A stretch of 64,000 nt of DNA from Sphingomonadaceae bacterium (lineage in GTDB: Bacteria; Pseudomonadota; Alphaproteobacteria; Sphingomonadales; Sphingomonadaceae), in contig JANYGB010000063.1 in assembly GCA_025359445.1 (NCBI GenBank), forward strand, positions 621 to 64,620, given 5' to 3'. The notes below the pieces were generated by a model. That model saw only the letters and a list, made by a program, of their open reading frames with translations, had not been told where the DNA came from and ran no database searches. Below, one piece after another: positions 1 through 8,682 of this stretch. Made by a program: the position numbers and the translations under genes. How positions within the stretch are numbered: position 1 is the stretch's first letter; each line of letters opens with the position of its first letter.

Positions 1-2
1 AG

Positions 3-476
3 GAGCTCGATTACGACAAGCTCAGCCTTACGATCGAAACCGACGGCACGATCAGCCCCGAAGATGCCGTGGCCTATGCCGCGCGGATCCTGCAGGACCA
101 GCTGTCACTGTTCGTGCACTTCGAAGACGCGATGCCGGTGGGCGGTTCGCCGATGATCGGCATGGCCGCCGCGCCGAGCGAAGAAGGCGATACCAACCAG
201 CTCAACCGTTACCTGCTCAAGAAGGTCGACGAGCTCGAGCTGTCGGTGCGCAGCGCCAATTGCCTCAAGAACGACAACATCATCTACATCGGCGATCTGG
301 TCCAGAAGACCGAAGCCGAGATGCTGCGCACGCCCAACTTCGGCCGCAAGTCGCTTAACGAGATCAAGGAAGTGCTGTCCAGCATGGGTCTGCGCCTCGG
401 CATGGACATCCCCGGCTGGCCGCCCGAGAACATCGAAGAAATGGCCAAGAAGCTCGAGCAGGAACTGCTGGGTTAA
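3..476 (+). CDS. rpoA: RNA polymerase alpha subunit, C-terminal part (gene starts before the window)
   Basis: Alpha-CTD sequence [55 protein letters not shown]. Confidence 0.99.
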
Positions 477-541
477 AGACGCCATTTTCGGGGACAAGCT
501 ATTGCGTGTCCCCGCAAAATGTCTGCCCGACCAACAAACAC

Positions 542-572
542 AAAGGGCCGTCCCGCAAGGGGCGGCTCTTTT
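542..572 (+). terminator. Intrinsic terminator after rpoA
   Basis: Hairpin AAAGGGCCGTCCC-GCAA-GGGGCGGCTC followed by TTTT. Confidence 0.8.
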
Positions 573-596
573 CGTTGGCGCACCAACCTCAATGAT

Positions 597-735
597 CGTC
601 ATGCTGAACTTGTTTCAGCACCCATCGGGCCGCGCTCACGGAGCAAGCAAGCCGAAGCGTAACGGCACCGTTGCGCACCCCTTCTTACACTGGGTGAGCA
701 GGCGAAATGGGCCCTGAAACGAGTTCAGGGTGACG
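597..735. repeat. CGTC-tagged palindromic REP-like element, subfamily 2 (CTGAACTTGTTTCAG arms)
   Basis: Arms CGTCATGCTGAACTTGTTTCAG and CTGAAACGAGTTCAGGGTGACG; sister copy at 60434-60572. Confidence 0.85.
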
Positions 736-772
736 AAGTTGGATAAAGGTGCGCGGTAGAGCGAGACAATGA

Positions 773-791
773 TTTAACCAAATAGGTTAAA
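773..791. promoter_or_regulatory. Inverted repeat TTTAACC-N5-GGTTAAA (two CtrA-like half sites) abutting a -35 box
   Basis: Perfect 7-bp arms seen directly; the CtrA assignment is inference because the spacing is not canonical TTAA-N7-TTAA. Confidence 0.45.
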
Positions 792-795
792 AATA

Positions 796-824
796 TTGAC
801 ATCGTAACGCTATTGCGCTAAACG
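796..824 (+). promoter_or_regulatory. Sigma70-type promoter upstream of the terminase small subunit-like gene
   Basis: TTGACA-N17-TAAACG, with GCTAAAC resembling the alphaproteobacterial -10 element. Confidence 0.6.
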
Positions 825-874
825 CTCGAACTCTGGCGCAGTTCCCCTCCGCGCCCATATGTGAACCCCCAACC

Positions 875-1378
875 ATGCCCAAACCCACCCCCGCCGCCGC
901 GCCAGCGGAGGCCTCGATCCGCCGCGCGATCAACAACCAGACCAAGCTGATCCGCACCACCGGCAAGCGCTGGTCGGCGCGGGCAGAGGCAGCGTTCCTC
1001 GAAACGCTTGCCGCCACTGCCAATGTCTCCGCCGCGGCTGAGGCGGCGGGGTTCTCCACCACCGCGATCTACCGGCGGCGGCTCAACGATGCGCACTTCG
1101 CCGCGCGCTGGGCCGAGGCGATGGAGGTGGGCTACACCCGGCTCGAATGCCTGGCGATCGAAGCGGGCGCGGCGGCGCTGAGCGGGACCCCGCTTGGTGC
1201 CGGTAAGCCGCTCCCGCCCATGACCGCCGCCGACGTACTCAACCTGCTGCGGCTGCACCAGGCGGGGGTGCGCGGCGGACGAGCGCAGCGGTATGACTGG
1301 CGCAGGGCGGAGCCGGACATCGAGGATGTGCGCGCGGAGATACTGCGGCGGGTGGCGGTAATGGGGGGCAGCGCGTGA
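875..1378 (+). CDS. Terminase small subunit-like HTH protein (GTA/phage-like)
   Basis: Helical HTH-like core AFLETLAATANVSAAAEAAGFSTTAIYRRR..FAARWAEAMEVGYTRLE, typical of small proteins preceding large terminases in sphingomonads; same strand as the TerL at 4401. Confidence 0.6.
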   Translation: MPKPTPAAAPAEASIRRAINNQTKLIRTTGKRWSARAEAAFLETLAATANVSAAAEAAGFSTTAIYRRRLNDAHFAARWAEAMEVGYTRLECLAIEAGAAALSGTPLGAGKPLPPMTAADVLNLLRLHQAGVRGGRAQRYDWRRAEPDIEDVRAEILRRVAVMGGSA

Positions 1379-1522
1379 TTGTGAGTTGATGGATTCGCTC
1401 GACTAGCAAGCTTTGCGTCCCATCTTAGATGGTCGTGACTTCGGGTTTGCCCCCCAGTTCCCGACTGTCAGCTTTTGCGCGCTGGCGGCGACTTGTGATG
1501 TCGCCGCGTACCCTTGAAGCGT

Positions 1523-1996
1523 TTACGAAATTGTCGGCGATAGATGGGCGTGGCCGGTGTGGCTGTGATCATGTTTGTGCTCGTGCTGGTCACCGGGTTC
1601 TACGCCGACCAGATTCAGCATCACCGACCGTACTCCGCGTTCAGCGCGAACGCTGTCTGCAAACTGGTTGAGTGCCTTTGTCGTGCCCTTGAGCATGACT
1701 CCTTCCAGAGTGCTGCTGTGATCCAATTCGATGGATGTCGAGCAAGCGATCAAATCATGATGGGCGTGCTGCAAATCAGACAGCCGACTGGCGAGGCTGC
1801 GGACCCGGCGATCATAGATGTAAGACAAGTTGCCGACGCTGTATTTATGAACCGATTGAGCGCTGTTGAGACGGCTCATCGCCTCGCGCACTATGTCACG
1901 TATTCCCTCGGAGCGGCTTCGATAGCCGGTCGCGCCGAGGAACTCGTCCAGCGCCCCGGCTAAGGGATCATCGAGCGATATGGTAATTCGCGGCAT
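1523..1996 (-). CDS. nikR: NikR-family ribbon-helix-helix metalloregulator with atypical metal site and His-rich tail
   Basis: RITISLDD..GYRSRSEGIRD RHH domain, NikR C-terminal domain (QHAHHDL..LKG..FADSVRAERGVR), tail QHEHKHDHSHTGHAH; start set at ATG 1996. Confidence 0.85.
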   Translation of the reverse strand: MPRITISLDDPLAGALDEFLGATGYRSRSEGIRDIVREAMSRLNSAQSVHKYSVGNLSYIYDRRVRSLASRLSDLQHAHHDLIACSTSIELDHSSTLEGVMLKGTTKALNQFADSVRAERGVRSVMLNLVGVEPGDQHEHKHDHSHTGHAHLSPTIS

Positions 1997-2204
1997 TTGC
2001 GTTCGAGTCCTTCCTGCGCGGCCTTTGGTCAAGTTCATACAGCTGCCGAGGCCAAGCTCCAACTGAACTGCGCCTGATGCTGCCGAGGAAGCGCGACGGC
2101 GCGATTTCATAACTTAGTAAATATAATTATGCACCAAAGGCAACTTTTTCGAGCGCGCGGCGTATTTTGATTAGCCCCATCCGGTGAGGGCTAAGGAGCT
2201 GCTT

Positions 2205-4259
2205 ATGGGTAAATCCGTTTGGTCGTTGCCGTTGATCGCTTTGGCAACGCCAGCCTTCGCGCAGGAGCAGTTGCCGTCCCCGGAAAGCGAGCGGCCAGCG
2301 ATCATCGTCACTGGCTCGCGGATCAGCCAGCTTGGCGTTGCGGACAGCGCCAACGCTGGCGTTGTTACAACCGAACAACTTGCCGCCCGAACGGTCTATC
2401 GTCCCGGCGAACTGCTTGAGGTCACACCAGGGCTGATCGTCAGCCAGCACAGCGGCGAGGGCAAGGCCAACCAGTTCTATTTGCGCGGCTTCAACCTCGA
2501 TCACGGCACCGATCTGCGAACGACCGTCGACGGGATGCTGGTCAACCAACGCAGTCATAGCCACGGGCAGGGGTGGACCGATGTAAACTTCCTGATCCCT
2601 GAGCTTGCGGGCACGCTCGAATATCGCAAAGGCCCCTATTCAGCGCAGGACGGCGATTTTGCAGCTGCTGGTTCGGTGAGCGTAAACTACGTGAACACGC
2701 TCCCAGATACTCTGGTCAGTCTGGGGTTTGGCGAGAATGGCTATCGCCGGGCATTGATCGCGGGATCGCCAGCGGTAGCTGGAGGCCATCTGCTTTATGC
2801 GCTCGAGCTGTTTCACAACGATGGTCCGTTCACCAAAGGCGACAACTATCGCAAGATCAACGGAGTAGTGCGATATTCACACGGCTCGGCAGCGTCGGGC
2901 TTTAATATCACCGGAATGGCTTACGAAGCGAGCTACAATGCGACCGACCAGATCCCCAAGCGAACGGTGGACGCTGGCACGCTTGACCGGTTCAGTTCGA
3001 TCGACCCCACCGATGGGGGCAAAGTTCATCGCTACAGCCTGTCCGCCGCCTGGCATGGCACCACCGAGAACACGGCAACCAAGGTAAACGCTTACGTCAT
3101 CGATAACCGGCTCCGGATATACTCTAATTTCACGTACTTTCTCGACGACCCAGTCAACGGCGATCAGTTCGCTCAGCCCGATGACCGCACCAGTTTTGCG
3201 CTCAACGCAAGCCATGCGCGGCGCTTCACGCTGTTCGGCCGCCCCAGCGAAATCACATTCGGCATCCAGGGCCAAAGGGATGCGATCAGCAATGGCCTGC
3301 TGAATACCAGAGCGCGGCAAGAGCTCTCTGAAACCCGACGCGATCGCATCAGGGAAACCAGCGTCGGCGCGTATCTTGAAAATACGGTTCACTGGACGGA
3401 CACATTTCGAACGGTCGCGGGGCTGCGCGAGGATTACTACGAGTTCGATGTAAGAAGCTCTTTGGCCGCAAACTCCGGCAAGACGCACGCCGCACTGCTT
3501 AGCCCGAAACTGAGCCTGATTTTCGGGCCGTGGTCCAAGACCGAGTTTTACGTGAACGCTGGTGCCGGCTTTCACAGCAATGACGCGCGGGGCACTGTGA
3601 TCTCCGTCGATCCAAAAACCGGCGACCCCGCCGACCGCGTGCCTGGTCTGGTCCGGGCCAAGGGCGTCGAAGCCGGCATCCGCACCGAAATCGTGCCGCA
3701 CTTGCAAAGCACCTTGTCGGTTTATGGGCTCGATTTCGATTCCGAACTGATTTTTGCGGGCGATGCCGGAACCACATTTGCCGGGCGGCCAAGCAGAAGG
3801 GTCGGGATTGAGTTCTCGAATTACTACAAGCCCACGCACTGGCTCACCATAGACGCTGATCTTGCCTTCGCGCAGGCCAGGTTCCGCGACGCTGATCCAG
3901 TTGGTCGGCGCATACCGGGCGCGGTCGAAGGCGTGGCTTCAATCGCTCTGTCGGTTGCTGATCTGGGGCCTTACTTCGGTGCGCTGCAATTCCGCTATTT
4001 CGGGCCGCGTCCGCTGATCGAAGATAACAGCGTGCGATCGAAATCCACAGCAACGCTGAACGGCAGGTTAGGTTACAAGATAGGGCCGGGAACAACGATC
4101 GAGCTTGAGGGATTCAACTTGCTCGACGCGAAAAGCTCAGCAATTGACTATTACTATCAGTCGCGGCTGCCGAATGAGGGCCCGGACGGGCAGGATGACA
4201 TCCATTTTCACCCGATCGAATCCCGGTCAGTGCGCGTGAACCTGATCGCACATTTTTAG
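2205..4259 (+). CDS. TonB-dependent outer membrane receptor, probably for a divalent metal
   Basis: Signal peptide, IIVTGS TonB-box region, plug motif GKANQFYLRGFNLDHGTD, His motifs RSHSHGQG and DDIHFHP, C-terminal Phe; SD AAGGAG before ATG 2205; divergent from nikR. Confidence 0.92.
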   Translation: MGKSVWSLPLIALATPAFAQEQLPSPESERPAIIVTGSRISQLGVADSANAGVVTTEQLAARTVYRPGELLEVTPGLIVSQHSGEGKANQFYLRGFNLDHGTDLRTTVDGMLVNQRSHSHGQGWTDVNFLIPELAGTLEYRKGPYSAQDGDFAAAGSVSVNYVNTLPDTLVSLGFGENGYRRALIAGSPAVAGGHLLYALELFHNDGPFTKGDNYRKINGVVRYSHGSAASGFNITGMAYEASYNATDQIPKRTVDAGTLDRFSSIDPTDGGKVHRYSLSAAWHGTTENTATKVNAYVIDNRLRIYSNFTYFLDDPVNGDQFAQPDDRTSFALNASHARRFTLFGRPSEITFGIQGQRDAISNGLLNTRARQELSETRRDRIRETSVGAYLENTVHWTDTFRTVAGLREDYYEFDVRSSLAANSGKTHAALLSPKLSLIFGPWSKTEFYVNAGAGFHSNDARGTVISVDPKTGDPADRVPGLVRAKGVEAGIRTEIVPHLQSTLSVYGLDFDSELIFAGDAGTTFAGRPSRRVGIEFSNYYKPTHWLTIDADLAFAQARFRDADPVGRRIPGAVEGVASIALSVADLGPYFGALQFRYFGPRPLIEDNSVRSKSTATLNGRLGYKIGPGTTIELEGFNLLDAKSSAIDYYYQSRLPNEGPDGQDDIHFHPIESRSVRVNLIAHF

Positions 4260-4400
4260 GATCGCTTAGGTCGACGCACCCTCCCAGGATCGACATATCC
4301 CTTAGCTTGTGGGGGCATTCAGGGTGTCCGCAATCGGGTCGTTTCCGGACGGTCCGCTTGTTGCATTCCGACCGCGACTTCCCCCCATTAAAGAGAAAAA

Positions 4401-5915
4401 GTGCCCATCATCCCCGAAATTCTCCGCAGCGCCGATCCTGCGTTGCGGGAGAGGATTGTCAGGTTTTTGCCCGAGGCGCAGTTGCGGGCTTTGGCACGCA
4501 GCTTTCCCGAGTGGGCGCATCTGGGGCAGCTTCCGCCCGTCTCGATCCCCACCGGCGGTGACTGGCGGACCTGGGTGATCATGGCCGGGCGCGGGTTTGG
4601 CAAGACGCGGGCGGGGGCGGAGTGGGTTTTGGACTGCGTGCGGGCCCACGCCCAAACTCGTCACCCCGGCGCAGGCCGGGGCCCAGCACGGAAAAAATTG
4701 CCACGAAGCGACGCTTGTTTGTTTGGTCTGGGTCCCGGCCTGCGCCGGGATGACGTGAGGGCAGGGGTGGGGGCGATCGAGAAGGGCGCGACTGGCGCAA
4801 GCCCCCTCCGTCAGCGCTCCGCACTGCCACCTCCCCCAGTGGGGGAAGATCTGAGAATAGCGCTGGTCGCCGCCACTGCTGACGAAGCCCGCGCTGTCAT
4901 GGTGGAGGGGCCGAGCGGCATCCTGGCTTGCGCGGGGCCGAACGAGATTGCCGACTGGTTGCCTTCGCGCGGGCTGCTCAAATTTGCCTCGGGGGCGGAG
5001 GCTACGCTCTATTCGGGGGCCTCGCCCAATGCCTTGCGCGGGCCGCAGCATCATTTTGCCTGGTGCGACGAGCTGGCGAAGTGGCGGCATCCGCTGTCGA
5101 CGTGGGACATGCTCCAGTTCGGGCTGCGCTGCGGTCCGGCTCCACGCGCGCTGGTCACGACCACCCCGCGCGGGGGCTGTGCGGCGTTGGCGGAGATTTT
5201 GGCCGCGCCCGATACGGTGCAAACCGGCGGGGCGAGCTCGGCCAATCCGCATCTGCCGCCCGCATTCCTATCTGCGGTGACCGTGCGCTATGGCGGGACG
5301 CGGCTGGGGCGCGAGGAGCTGGATGGCGAGTTTCTGAGCGAGATTGCGGGATCGCTGTGGCCGCTGGCTTTGCTCGATGCGAGCCGGGGGCCGATGCCTG
5401 CACCGGAGACCTTGCGCCGGGTGGTGGTCGCGGTCGATCCGCCGGCCAGCGCGGCGGGGACGTGCGGGATCGTGGCCTGCGGGCTCGATGCGGGCGGCGT
5501 GGCGCATGTGCTGGCGGATTGCTCGGCGGAAGGCTTGTCGCCGGAGGGCTGGGCGCGCGCGGTCGCGGCGGCGGCGGAGGCGTGGCAAGCCGACCGGGTG
5601 GTGGCGGAGAAGAACCAGGGCGGCGACATGGTCCGCTCGGTGTTGCGTGCGGCCGGGCTGGTCTTGCCGCTGACGCTCGTCTCGGCAACGCGCAGCAAAG
5701 TGCGGCGGGCCGAGCCGGTGGCGGGGCTGTTCGAAAGCGGACGGGCGCGGCTGGCGGGGCGCTTTCCCGAACTGGAGACGCAGCTTTCCGGGTTGGTGGC
5801 GGGCGGGGATTATATGGGGCCGGGCAAGTCGCCCGACCGCGCCGATGCGATGGTCTGGGCGCTGCACGCGCTGATGTTCGCCGCGCGCGGGCCGGTACGG
5901 GTCTCCCGGCCGTGA
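4401..5915 (+). CDS. Terminase large subunit (Terminase_6/RcGTA g2-like DNA packaging ATPase-nuclease) with in-frame repeat insertion
   Basis: Walker A GRGFGKT, Walker B FAWCDE, coupling motif VTTTP, nuclease motifs VVAVDPP, AEKNQGG and SPDRADA are all intact. Confidence 0.93.
   Translation: MPIIPEILRSADPALRERIVRFLPEAQLRALARSFPEWAHLGQLPPVSIPTGGDWRTWVIMAGRGFGKTRAGAEWVLDCVRAHAQTRHPGAGRGPARKKLPRSDACLFGLGPGLRRDDVRAGVGAIEKGATGASPLRQRSALPPPPVGEDLRIALVAATADEARAVMVEGPSGILACAGPNEIADWLPSRGLLKFASGAEATLYSGASPNALRGPQHHFAWCDELAKWRHPLSTWDMLQFGLRCGPAPRALVTTTPRGGCAALAEILAAPDTVQTGGASSANPHLPPAFLSAVTVRYGGTRLGREELDGEFLSEIAGSLWPLALLDASRGPMPAPETLRRVVVAVDPPASAAGTCGIVACGLDAGGVAHVLADCSAEGLSPEGWARAVAAAAEAWQADRVVAEKNQGGDMVRSVLRAAGLVLPLTLVSATRSKVRRAEPVAGLFESGRARLAGRFPELETQLSGLVAGGDYMGPGKSPDRADAMVWALHALMFAARGPVRVSRP
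4659..4755. repeat. CGTC-tagged palindromic element, subfamily 1, inside the terL reading frame
   Basis: Arms CGTCACCCCGGCGCAGGCCGGGGCCCAG and CTGGGTCCCGGCCTGCGCCGGGATGACG, same arms as intergenic copies at 10306, 43665 and 50306. Confidence 0.92.
4802..4850. repeat. Second short palindromic repeat unit inside terL
   Basis: CCCCTCCGTCAGC..GCCACCTCCCCCAGTGGGGGAAGAT ending in a TCCCCC-AGT-GGGGGA hairpin like the other repeat hairpins in the window. Confidence 0.6.
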
Positions 5916-5922
5916 TCGCGGC

Positions 5923-5951
5923 TTGACATTGGCGGCGGAATCGCGTTGAGG
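5923..5951 (+). promoter_or_regulatory. Candidate independent promoter for rplQ
   Basis: Perfect TTGACA at 5923-5928; the -10 element is weak. Confidence 0.35.
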
Positions 5952-6031
5952 GCGGCGCTCTGGCGGCTGGCATTTTGCCCCGCCTGCTACGGGCTACCTG
6001 ATCCGGGCCCCTAACGAACGAGGACTGTATT

Positions 6032-6442
6032 ATGCGTCATAAAGTTGGCGGGCGTAAGCTCAATCGCACGACGTCTCACCGCAAGGCACTGTTTCGTAAC
6101 ATGGCCGCAGCACTGATCAAGCACGAGCAAATCACCACCACGCTGCCCAAGGCGCGCGAACTGCGCCCTTATGTCGAAAAGCTGATCACGCTGGCGAAGC
6201 ACGGCGGGCTGTCGAACCGCCGCCTGGCGCACGCCCGGCTGCTCGATGATGCGCAGCTGGTGAAGCTGTTCGATGTGCTGGCCGCGCGCTACGCCGACCG
6301 CGCCGGGGGCTATACCCGCGTGATCAAAGCCGGGATCCGCGCCGGTGACGCATCGCCGATGGCGGTGATCGAACTGGTCGAGCGCGATGTCGATGCCAAG
6401 GGCAAGGACTCGGGCCCGGTGTTCACCGCCGACGACGAATAA
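6032..6442 (+). CDS. rplQ: 50S ribosomal protein L17
   Basis: [52 protein letters not shown]. Confidence 0.99.
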
Positions 6443-6474
6443 TCCCTGGCATTCGTCGAACGACGAATTGCAAT

Positions 6475-6516
6475 GGCGGCGGCAGGTTCTACCCTGATCG
6501 CCGCCTTTTGCTTTTT
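6475..6516 (+). terminator. Intrinsic terminator after rplQ
   Basis: Hairpin GGCGGCGGCAGG..CCTGATCGCCGCC followed by TTTTGCTTTTT. Confidence 0.7.
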
Positions 6517-6528
6517 GGGGAGAATGCA

Positions 6529-8682
6529 GTGCAGCGCCGTGTCAAACTTCTGGTCGGTCTGGCTTTTGGCCTGTGCGCCGCCGCTGCCGCAGCCGAGACG
6601 ATGAAAGTGACTTACCCGCAAACCCGCCGCACTGATCTGGTCGAGCAGCAATTCGGTCAGGCCGTCGCCGATCCCTATCGCTGGCTCGAGAACGATGTGC
6701 GGACCGACCAAGAAGTTGCGGGCTGGGTGACGCGCGAGAACGCGGTGACGCAGGATTATCTCGGCTCGCTTGGCCAGCGCGCGTGGTTCGGCCAGCGGAT
6801 CAAGGCGCTGATGGATTATGAGCGGTTCGGGCTGCCGCACAAGGCGGGCAAGTTCTATTTCTACACGCGCAATTCAGGTCTGCAGAACCAGGCGCAGCTG
6901 TTTGTCCGCAGCGGGCTGGGCGGCGCGCCGCGGCTGCTGATCGATCCCAATCTGTGGGCCAAGGACGGCGCCACTGCACTCGACGGTTGGGAACCGTCGA
7001 AAAGTGGCAAGCTGCTGGCTTATGCGGTGCAGGACGGCGGGACCGACTGGCGGATCATTCGCCTGCTCGATAGCGAGACCGGCAAGGTGCTGCCCGACGA
7101 GATCAAGTGGGCAAAATTTAGCGGAATATCGTGGATCGGCGATACGGGCTTTGTCTATTCGCGCTTCCCCGTGCCGGCCAGCGGCCAGGCGTTCCAGCAG
7201 CTCAACAAGAACCAGGAAGTCCGCTTCCACCGCATCGGCACCCCCCAATCGGCGGATGAGCTGGTCTATGCAACGCCCGACAAGCCTGATCTGGGCCACG
7301 GCGCAGAGGTGACTCATGACGGTCGCTGGATGGTGATTACCTCAACCCAAGGCACCGATAGCCGCAATGCAGTGCACCTGATCCGGCTCGGCGGGCGCAA
7401 GGCCAATACCGATAAATGGGCGGCGAAGACCCTCGTGGCCGAGCTCGAAAACGACTGGCGGCTGATCGAGGGGATGGGCGACACGCTTTACTTCATGACC
7501 AACCAGGGTGCCCCCAGATTGAAGGTGGTTCGGGTCAATGTGGCGGCGACCAATCCGCAGTTCACCGACATCGTCCCCGAACGCGCTGAAACGCTCGAAC
7601 GTGCGCGGATTGTCGGCAACCGGCTGATCCTGTCGTACCTCAAGGATGCCGCCTCGACTGCCGAGACCATGTCGCTTGATGGCAAGCCAGTGGCGCACAT
7701 TGCCTTGAATGCGATCGGAACGGCATCGGGCTTTACCGGCGAGCCGGGCGATCCGGAGACGTTCTACAGTTTCACCAGTTTCAATCAGCCGAGTGCGATT
7801 TACCGCTATGATGCCGCCACCGGCCACAGCACACCTTTCGCGCAGCCGAAGCTGACCTTTGATCCCGCCAATTACGTGATCGAGCAAAGTTTTTACCCGT
7901 CGAAGGACGGCACCAAAATCCCGCTGTTCCTGGTCCGGCGCAAAGACGTTGCAGCGGTGAACAAGCCGGTACCCACGCTGCTCTATGGCTACGGCGGGTT
8001 CGACATTTCGCTCACCCCCGGGTTCTCGGCAACGCGGATGGCGTGGCTCGAGGCGGGCGGGGCCTTTGCCATGGCCAACCTGCGCGGCGGGGGTGAATAC
8101 GGCAAAGCGTGGCATGATGCCGGGCGGCTGAACAACAAGCAGAACGTGTTCGATGACTTCATCGCCGCGGGCGAATTCCTGATCGCGCAAGGGATCACCC
8201 CCAAGGGCGGTCTGGCAGTGCAGGGCGGTTCGAACGGCGGCTTGCTGATCGGCGCGGTGGTCAACCAGCGGCCCGATCTGTTCGCTGCGGCCAATGCGCA
8301 AGTCGGCGTGATGGACATGCTACGGTTCGACCGCTTCACCGCCGGACGTTATTGGGTGGATGATTACGGCTATCCCTCAAAAGAAGCCGACTGGAAGGTG
8401 TTGCGCGCCTATTCGCCGTACCACAACATCCGCAGCGGGGTGGCGTACCCGGCGCTGTTGGTGACCACGGCAGATACCGATGACCGCGTGGTCCCCGGGC
8501 ACAGCTTCAAATATACCGCCGCGCTGCAGGCCGCCGATCCCAGGGGCAAGCCGCACCTGATCCGCATCGAAACCCGCGCCGGGCACGGGGCAGGCAAGCC
8601 AACCGACAAGGTAGTGGCCGAGGGTGCCGACGTGCTCGCCTTCCTCGCGCAGTGGACCGGTCTCACAGTACCGGGGGTGTAG
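6529..8682 (+). CDS. Prolyl oligopeptidase (S9A), secreted
   Basis: Signal peptide, VADPYRWLE, catalytic GGSNGGL, DDRV and AGHGAGK; start set at GTG 6529 after GGGAGA. Confidence 0.96.
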   Translation: MQRRVKLLVGLAFGLCAAAAAAETMKVTYPQTRRTDLVEQQFGQAVADPYRWLENDVRTDQEVAGWVTRENAVTQDYLGSLGQRAWFGQRIKALMDYERFGLPHKAGKFYFYTRNSGLQNQAQLFVRSGLGGAPRLLIDPNLWAKDGATALDGWEPSKSGKLLAYAVQDGGTDWRIIRLLDSETGKVLPDEIKWAKFSGISWIGDTGFVYSRFPVPASGQAFQQLNKNQEVRFHRIGTPQSADELVYATPDKPDLGHGAEVTHDGRWMVITSTQGTDSRNAVHLIRLGGRKANTDKWAAKTLVAELENDWRLIEGMGDTLYFMTNQGAPRLKVVRVNVAATNPQFTDIVPERAETLERARIVGNRLILSYLKDAASTAETMSLDGKPVAHIALNAIGTASGFTGEPGDPETFYSFTSFNQPSAIYRYDAATGHSTPFAQPKLTFDPANYVIEQSFYPSKDGTKIPLFLVRRKDVAAVNKPVPTLLYGYGGFDISLTPGFSATRMAWLEAGGAFAMANLRGGGEYGKAWHDAGRLNNKQNVFDDFIAAGEFLIAQGITPKGGLAVQGGSNGGLLIGAVVNQRPDLFAAANAQVGVMDMLRFDRFTAGRYWVDDYGYPSKEADWKVLRAYSPYHNIRSGVAYPALLVTTADTDDRVVPGHSFKYTAALQAADPRGKPHLIRIETRAGHGAGKPTDKVVAEGADVLAFLAQWTGLTVPGV

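Follow-up and report, generated by a model that had tools for sequence, protein, structure and literature searches.

A conserved NikR-family regulator lacking three of the four textbook nickel ligands, paired with a TonB-dependent receptor in Sphingomonadaceae

NikR has been described as a nickel-only sensor acting through a conserved His3Cys site (PMC11672702; PMC7055735), its selectivity has been explained by the square-planar geometry of that site (PMC11672702), and a 2026 preprint (10.64898/2026.05.01.721428) presents NikR as one dominant nickel cluster with an essentially complete functional landscape. The locus analyzed here raises the question of what becomes of a NikR homologue when most of that site is gone. 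It lies in a 64,000-nucleotide stretch of DNA (the window) from a Sphingomonadaceae bacterium (assembly GCA_025359445.1, contig JANYGB010000063.1), where a nikR-like gene stands divergent to a gene for a TonB-dependent receptor (TBDR). Our literature search, incomplete in coverage, returned no paper on NikR homologues without the nickel site, and an earlier description may exist; nothing relevant was found on sphingomonad genera together with NikR. The features discussed below are collected in Table 1.

Table 1. Features of the nikR-like locus and its divergent receptor gene, in window coordinates
Feature	Position	Strand	Description
nikR-like gene	1523..1996	-	157 aa plus stop; translation begins MPRITISL
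RHH domain	1856..1996	-	about residues 1-47 of the nikR-like protein
ACT-like metal-binding domain	1592..1843	-	about residues 52-135 of the nikR-like protein
Former high-affinity-site segment	1709..1768	-	from the gapless alignment to 1q5v and column counts in 121 homologues; also holds H79, H80 and D92
H77	1766..1768	-	codon in the former-site segment
S88	1733..1735	-	codon in the former-site segment
E90	1727..1729	-	codon in the former-site segment
H93	1718..1720	-	codon in the former-site segment
T96	1709..1711	-	codon in the former-site segment
His-rich C-terminal tail	1544..1585	-	residues 138-151, H-E-H-K-H-D-H-S-H-T-G-H-A-H, then L-S-P
Candidate operator	2107..2133		imperfect palindrome TTCATAAC-N12-ATTATGCA; contains TATAAT
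Divergent TBDR	2205..4259	+	plug and barrel domains; presumed regulated gene
TBDR start codon	2205	+	ATG; the mechanical ORF starts at GTG 2184
TBDR ribosome-binding site	2194..2199	+	AAGGAG

The nikR-like protein and its former nickel site

The nikR-like protein matched both Pfam domains of the family, RHH_1 (PF01402; residues 3–39, E = 1.5e-7) and NikR_C (PF08753; residues 54–129, E = 1e-22, 80.6 bits, the cut-off being 22). The NCBIfam model NF002815, 'NikR', scored 133 bits, above its cut-off of 83, and TIGR02793 scored 111 bits, below its cut-off of 175. In a phmmer search of the PDB the protein aligned to E. coli NikR (1q5v, E = 3e-24). An AF2 model, built as a monomer without metal, had a mean pLDDT of 85.5, and a Foldseek search with this model placed NikR structures at the top, the best being E. 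coli NikR 2hza with a target-normalised TM of 0.81. The two proteins have the same order of RHH and ACT-like domains (PDB 1Q5V, 2HZA, 2HZV) and are about 41% identical over the 128 aligned positions of the Foldseek structural alignment. A longer mechanical ORF beginning at 2110 is unsupported, since homologues begin at M-Q-R-I-T.

The elements of DNA binding are present. R3, T5 and S7 form the R-x-T-x-[ST] reading strand, are conserved in the homologue alignment, and correspond to R3/T5/[ST]7 of E. coli NikR; together with the intact R28-S-E-G-I-R-D34 segment they agree with the first-pass annotation of this DNA, which had read the RITIS strand and RSExIRD as intact. The protein also shares with E. 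coli NikR the residues E30 and D34 of the second (K+ or low-affinity) site, at the interface of the RHH and metal-binding domains, as defined in PMC7055735. Among 121 homologues, E30 is found in 119 and D34 in all.

The high-affinity site is different. The phmmer alignment to 1q5v is gapless over residues 50–127, and each residue of the window protein in this span therefore corresponds to the E. coli residue numbered one lower. H77 and H93 are the counterparts of E. coli H76 and H92, whereas S88, E90 and T96 stand in place of H87, H89 and C95. We checked the codons from 1709 to 1729 by hand against the raw sequence. The substitutions H87 to S, H89 to E and C95 to T, and the retention of H76 and H92, had been proposed from an alignment by eye, and they hold up in this register. 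Of the square-planar Ni(II) site H76'/H87/H89/C95, only H76 is thus present.

Column counts across the 121 homologues separate the residues that stayed from those that drift. H77, H80 and H93 are invariant, H79 occurs in 116 sequences and D92 in 119. Position 88, in contrast, is occupied by S, L, V or H, position 90 by P, H or R, and position 96 by S or T; a cysteine at position 96 is found in just five distant homologues, all of which have the full H-V-H-L-D-H-x-x-C motif. The glutamate at position 90 occurs in the window protein alone; alanine takes its place in the relative that is 93% identical, and proline in the remaining subclade. An S-x-E..T pattern conserved across a clade, which the first-pass annotation had envisaged, is accordingly not seen. 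The annotation had also pointed to a new cysteine; this residue does exist (C85, at the position of E. coli A84), but with a cysteine in only 4 of the 121 homologues it is no conserved substitute for a lost ligand. Both C85 and E90 were considered as substitutes for the lost ligands and rejected, since neither is conserved among the homologues. Judged from these alignments, the drift at positions 88, 90 and 96 means that they were released, not redesigned. H79, H80 and H93 are common in canonical NikRs too, and are therefore not specific compensations for the loss. A further candidate, a heterotetramer with a canonical paralogue, was rejected because the source genome carries a single NikR_C gene.

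Conservation of the lineage and its histidine tail

From 5.8 billion proteins searched, we recovered 120 homologues with identities of 48–93%. More than 100 homologues lack these ligands, with varied patterns at the three positions, and they come chiefly from Sphingomonadales and Caulobacterales. These numbers bear on the simplest explanation of the missing ligands, that a nikR gene is decaying in one strain, which the first-pass annotation had named as the case that would undo its reading. E90 and T96 are indeed unusual even inside the clade. However, no relative has a truncated ORF, pairwise dN/dS is about 0.04–0.14 where dS is unsaturated, which signifies purifying selection, the loss is common to the >100 homologues, and both the operator and the gene pairing described below are conserved. 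We give strain decay almost no weight, and consider it refuted by these comparisons of sequence. The gene at this locus is, on the same comparisons, an intact and selected member of the NikR family without three of the four textbook nickel ligands.

With each species represented by one genome, a scan identified 288 relatives, and 80 loci were kept for analysis. These came from Alphaproteobacteria (Sphingomonas, Novosphingobium, Sphingobium, Caulobacteraceae, Phenylobacterium and Hyphomonadaceae), from gammaproteobacteria (Acidibacter and Steroidobacteraceae) and from Gallionellaceae. The gene is patchy, as a close homologue was present in only 2 of 400 other genomes sampled from the order of the source organism. 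When representatives of 50%-identity clusters were searched exhaustively, the best 150 matches included 92 with the canonical HHHC quartet and about 55 with other quartets, indicating that ligand-variant NikR-like proteins are common near this lineage. Metagenome contigs gave no matches in a single-protein scan and few close relatives in an alignment-based scan.

We built a maximum-likelihood tree of the NikR relatives from an alignment stripped of the three ligand columns. HHHC forms from Gallionellaceae, Steroidobacterales and Phenylobacterium are basal, and the variants make up a few derived alphaproteobacterial clades. At least two changes between canonical and variant states are needed; H87 changes five times and H89 six times, a pattern that fits release from constraint. 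The window protein falls in a clade of 11 rows (SH-aLRT 98) with the quartets HSPS, HLHS and HVHS. The earlier suggestion of an undescribed NikR subfamily is borne out to the extent that tree, homologues and dN/dS together delineate a conserved, apparently undescribed sublineage.

Besides lacking H87, H89 and C95, the window protein differs from E. coli NikR in having a 25-residue His-rich tail. Translation verifies the seven tail histidines reported earlier (138, 140, 142, 144, 146, 149 and 151). Among 76 sequences, H144, H151 and P154 are invariant, and conservation reaches 90% or more at H138, H146, G148, L152 and S153; nearly all of the 120 homologues are 156–157 residues long and end in H-x-H-x-G-H-x-H-L-S-P. 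In the AF2 monomer the tail has a pLDDT of about 60, and residues 151–154 form a short strand. Canonical NikRs of the same tree lineage, from Phenylobacterium, Steroidobacterales and Gallionellaceae (L054, L063, L086, L101 and L094), keep H87, H89 and C95 and have the same tail, H-x-H-L-[ST]-P. Since these full His3Cys relatives carry it too, the tail does not set the ligand-less NikRs apart. To our knowledge, no member of the tail-bearing canonical group has been experimentally characterised.

The conserved histidines also bear on the first-pass suggestion of a constitutive repressor. The protein might act independently of metal, under constitutive or non-metal control, using the NikR scaffold for tetramerisation and DNA binding only. 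Such a reading would accommodate the drift of positions 88, 90 and 96 even at 93% identity and the repeated flips of H87 and H89, five to six times each, and the order does contain other RHH + ACT proteins without any His ligands. Yet H77, H80, H93, H144 and H151 never vary, even in sequences as distant as 46% identity, and H79, H138 and H146 hardly do, which is hard to explain without metal binding; moreover, a permanently shut receptor gene would not stay under selection. We regard a metal-independent repressor as improbable.

A distant relative was observed in the course of this survey. At L010:1429–1905, on the reverse strand, lies a gene for an RHH + ACT-like protein with 22–25% identity and no His at the NikR ligand positions, and genes of this type occur in about 30 other genomes of the order. 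They adjoin genes for an ABC ATPase and, by a resemblance judged by eye, a urea-carboxylase-associated-like protein. From its sequence, this protein looks like a separate NikR-like family that is not metal-sensing.

The candidate operator and the paired receptor

The candidate operator lies 72 bp upstream of the receptor ATG, and the TATAAT hexamer at 2122–2127 inside it resembles a -10 box. The motif occurs at the equivalent place in 8 related loci, and the consensus in the subclade of the window is a 26-bp palindrome, GC[A/G/C]TAA[C/T]-N12-[A/G]TTA[T/A/G]G[A/C]. When a PWM built from nine sites was scanned over the whole 2.96-Mb genome, the window site scored 41 bits and the next best genome site 17 bits; with a single site of this type, the predicted regulon is limited to the nikR-receptor pair. 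The palindrome of two half-sites before a presumed metal-uptake gene, as is typical of NikR operators, is found here in a variant 26-bp form. It shares with the E. coli operator the two-half-site palindrome and the inner AAC-N12-GTT frame, but is of the type GCATAAC-N12-GTTATGC as opposed to the 28-bp GTATGA-N16-TCATAC. In loci whose nickel site is canonical, or of several of the variant types, the nikR-receptor gap holds a 28-bp palindrome, GTA[T/G]GAAC-N12-GTTC[A/C]TAC, that shares the architecture of the E. coli operator, and the tail-bearing canonical NikRs have a 28-bp operator, GTAGGAAC-N12-GTTCCTAC.

A strict sigma-70 scan of the nikR-receptor intergenic region returned no promoter, and an Rfam scan of positions 1–7000 returned no riboswitch, its sole match being a spurious MIR168 at hairpin repeats within terL. 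We also observed a perfect 7-bp inverted repeat at 2171–2194, TTAGCCC-N10-GGGCTAA, which abuts and partly overlaps the receptor ribosome-binding site. This repeat had no Rfam match and may form a 5' UTR hairpin affecting translation of the receptor.

The association with one TBDR family, which the first-pass annotation had raised as a point to check, is supported by orthologous receptors adjoining nikR in the relatives. Most loci of sufficient length show TBDR orthologues with 36–81% identity, divergent and 110–350 bp upstream of nikR; across 160 loci, such an orthologue within 1.5 kb of nikR was found for 12 of the 17 members of the window's clade. Canonical-site Phenylobacterium loci pair with the same receptor family, as do, in the same gene arrangement, alphaproteobacterial and some gammaproteobacterial tail-bearing canonical NikRs. 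Four plug histidines (89, 107, 125 and 127, numbered from the GTG) are conserved in at least 88% of 49 TBDR orthologues, within the motifs SQHSG, LDHGTD and SHSHGQGW, and would suit direct binding or coordination of a metal cation.

NikR-regulated receptors have been predicted before. The presumed target distinguishes the window protein from E. coli NikR, which controls nikABCDE. A closer parallel is Helicobacter pylori NikR with FrpB4 and FecA3, which likewise controls TonB-dependent metal uptake at the outer membrane (Schauer et al. 2007, as cited in PMC4176598). We liken FrpB4 and FecA3 to the window receptor by role; orthology is no part of the comparison. The regulators differ in that H. 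pylori NikR, a global regulator, retains all of His3Cys and has an N-terminal arm, whereas the window protein has a single operator in its genome.

The histories of receptor and regulator do not coincide. The window receptor is 69% identical to that of the HHHC locus L054, whose canonical NikR is 54% identical to the window protein, and only 36–47% identical to receptors of HLHS loci in its own NikR clade (L037 and L038 being the comparison), which suggests, from sequence identities, that the modules have been shuffled or transferred. The nikR-receptor pair (1400–4400) has a GC content of 0.56–0.61, against 0.68–0.75 in the flanks (875–1378 and 4401–5915); the flanking genes encode small-terminase-like and large terminase proteins, and all of these lie between rpoA and rplQ. 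Since the pair occurs in unrelated contexts in relatives, it behaves as a two-gene cassette. NCBIfam supplied no names for the recurrent neighbours of nikR loci.

Proposed relocation of metal sensing and the probable metal

The reading that we prefer, with a confidence that stands near the midpoint, is that the protein is a working repressor whose metal sensing has moved to a His-only site, the metal most probably being Ni(II) or Ni/Co. A NikR-like tetramer, as expected by homology, would bind the candidate operator across its TATAAT and, when the sensed metal is plentiful, switch off the TBDR as a metal importer and perhaps nikR itself. We infer that the new site would comprise H77 of the neighbouring subunit, H79/H80, H93 and perhaps D92, which by homology ring the old site, completed by the conserved tail residues H138, H144, H146 and H151. 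Retained metal sensing is supported by the invariance of H77, H80, H93 and the tail motif in spite of the lineage-wide ligand loss, and the kept E30 and D34 of the second site argue for a functional NikR-family sensor. Counting against the proposal, the AF2 monomer models the tail with only moderate confidence. For this sizeable alphaproteobacterial lineage as a whole, there is perhaps an even chance that His3Cys was lost at least twice and gave way to a tail-assisted His-only site (octahedral Ni/Co, or a changed metal) with a shortened operator.

Support for nickel comes from the HHHC relatives with the same tail and receptor family, from a urease-linked sister clade and from HupE/UreJ neighbours. 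HupE/UreJ is a family of Ni/Co permeases. Its genes occur in 13 of 70 variant loci, and recur with DUF4198 and DUF4331 genes beside variant nikR; in the HLHS loci L039 and L121 of the window's own clade the arrangement is nikR-x-receptor-HupE. The sister clade, H-[V/L/I]-R-S, has lost the same three ligands, and urease is present in 9 of its 14 genomes. Its locus L049 reads ureDABC, sensor kinase, response regulator, nikR, and L060 reads ureG, kinase, regulator, receptor, nikR. NiFe hydrogenase was seen only with the Gallionellaceae canonical forms and L062.

The genome inventory is less accommodating. Neither urease, NiFe hydrogenase nor Ni-SOD turned up in the 99.7%-complete source genome, nor did the B12 cobalt chelatase CobN or any CobW/HypB/UreG (G3E) GTPase, and none of the 11 genomes of the window's clade had urease or hydrogenase. 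A need for nickel or cobalt is thereby left unexplained, which keeps alive the alternative that the effector has switched to another metal (Co, Zn and Cu, which the first-pass annotation had also named, or Fe) sensed by a His/carboxylate site, with the receptor importing that metal. Three of the four nickel-specific ligands are gone, reviews tie the nickel selectivity of NikR to square-planar geometry (PMC11672702), and the operator of the window's clade is unlike the canonical type. The neighbouring DUF4198 genes do not point to nickel either, as the family is one of general periplasmic metal capture whose only characterised member binds zinc (PMC12663993); Caulobacter members respond to Fe or Zn. 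Against a switch, the receptor family also partners relatives with a canonical His3Cys site, the sister clade, which shows the same losses, has its nikR genes within urease clusters, HupE/UreJ is linked to variant loci, and no Zur- or Fur-type context was seen. Context thus disfavors another metal, and we judge a switch of effector to be a minority prospect, unlikely though deserving more weight than metal independence.

In the source genome itself, contig 46 carries a HupE-DUF4198-DUF4331 cluster that neighbours an AraC-type gene and a virB system; no NikR-type operator was found near it. The cluster (L116:560–9000 in G000) adjoins genes for SLT, VirB2, VirB3 and VirB4, and its adjacency to virB-type genes recurs in several genomes of Sphingomonadales and Caulobacterales (L043, L053 and L099).

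A lineage-wide loss of the site, with tail, operator and receptor kept, means that the NikR family is less uniform than reviews say, and that proteins devoid of the nickel site are being annotated automatically as 'nickel-responsive regulator NikR'. How ionic Ni/Co enters through the outer membrane is still poorly documented, and the receptor family paired with these regulators is a candidate importer. Scaffold, operator and uptake target kept without the site amount to a natural experiment in rebuilding or re-specifying allosteric metal sensing on one fold. If sensing has indeed been relocated, these proteins would be the first NikR sensors independent of the coordination chemistry that reviewers credit for nickel selectivity.
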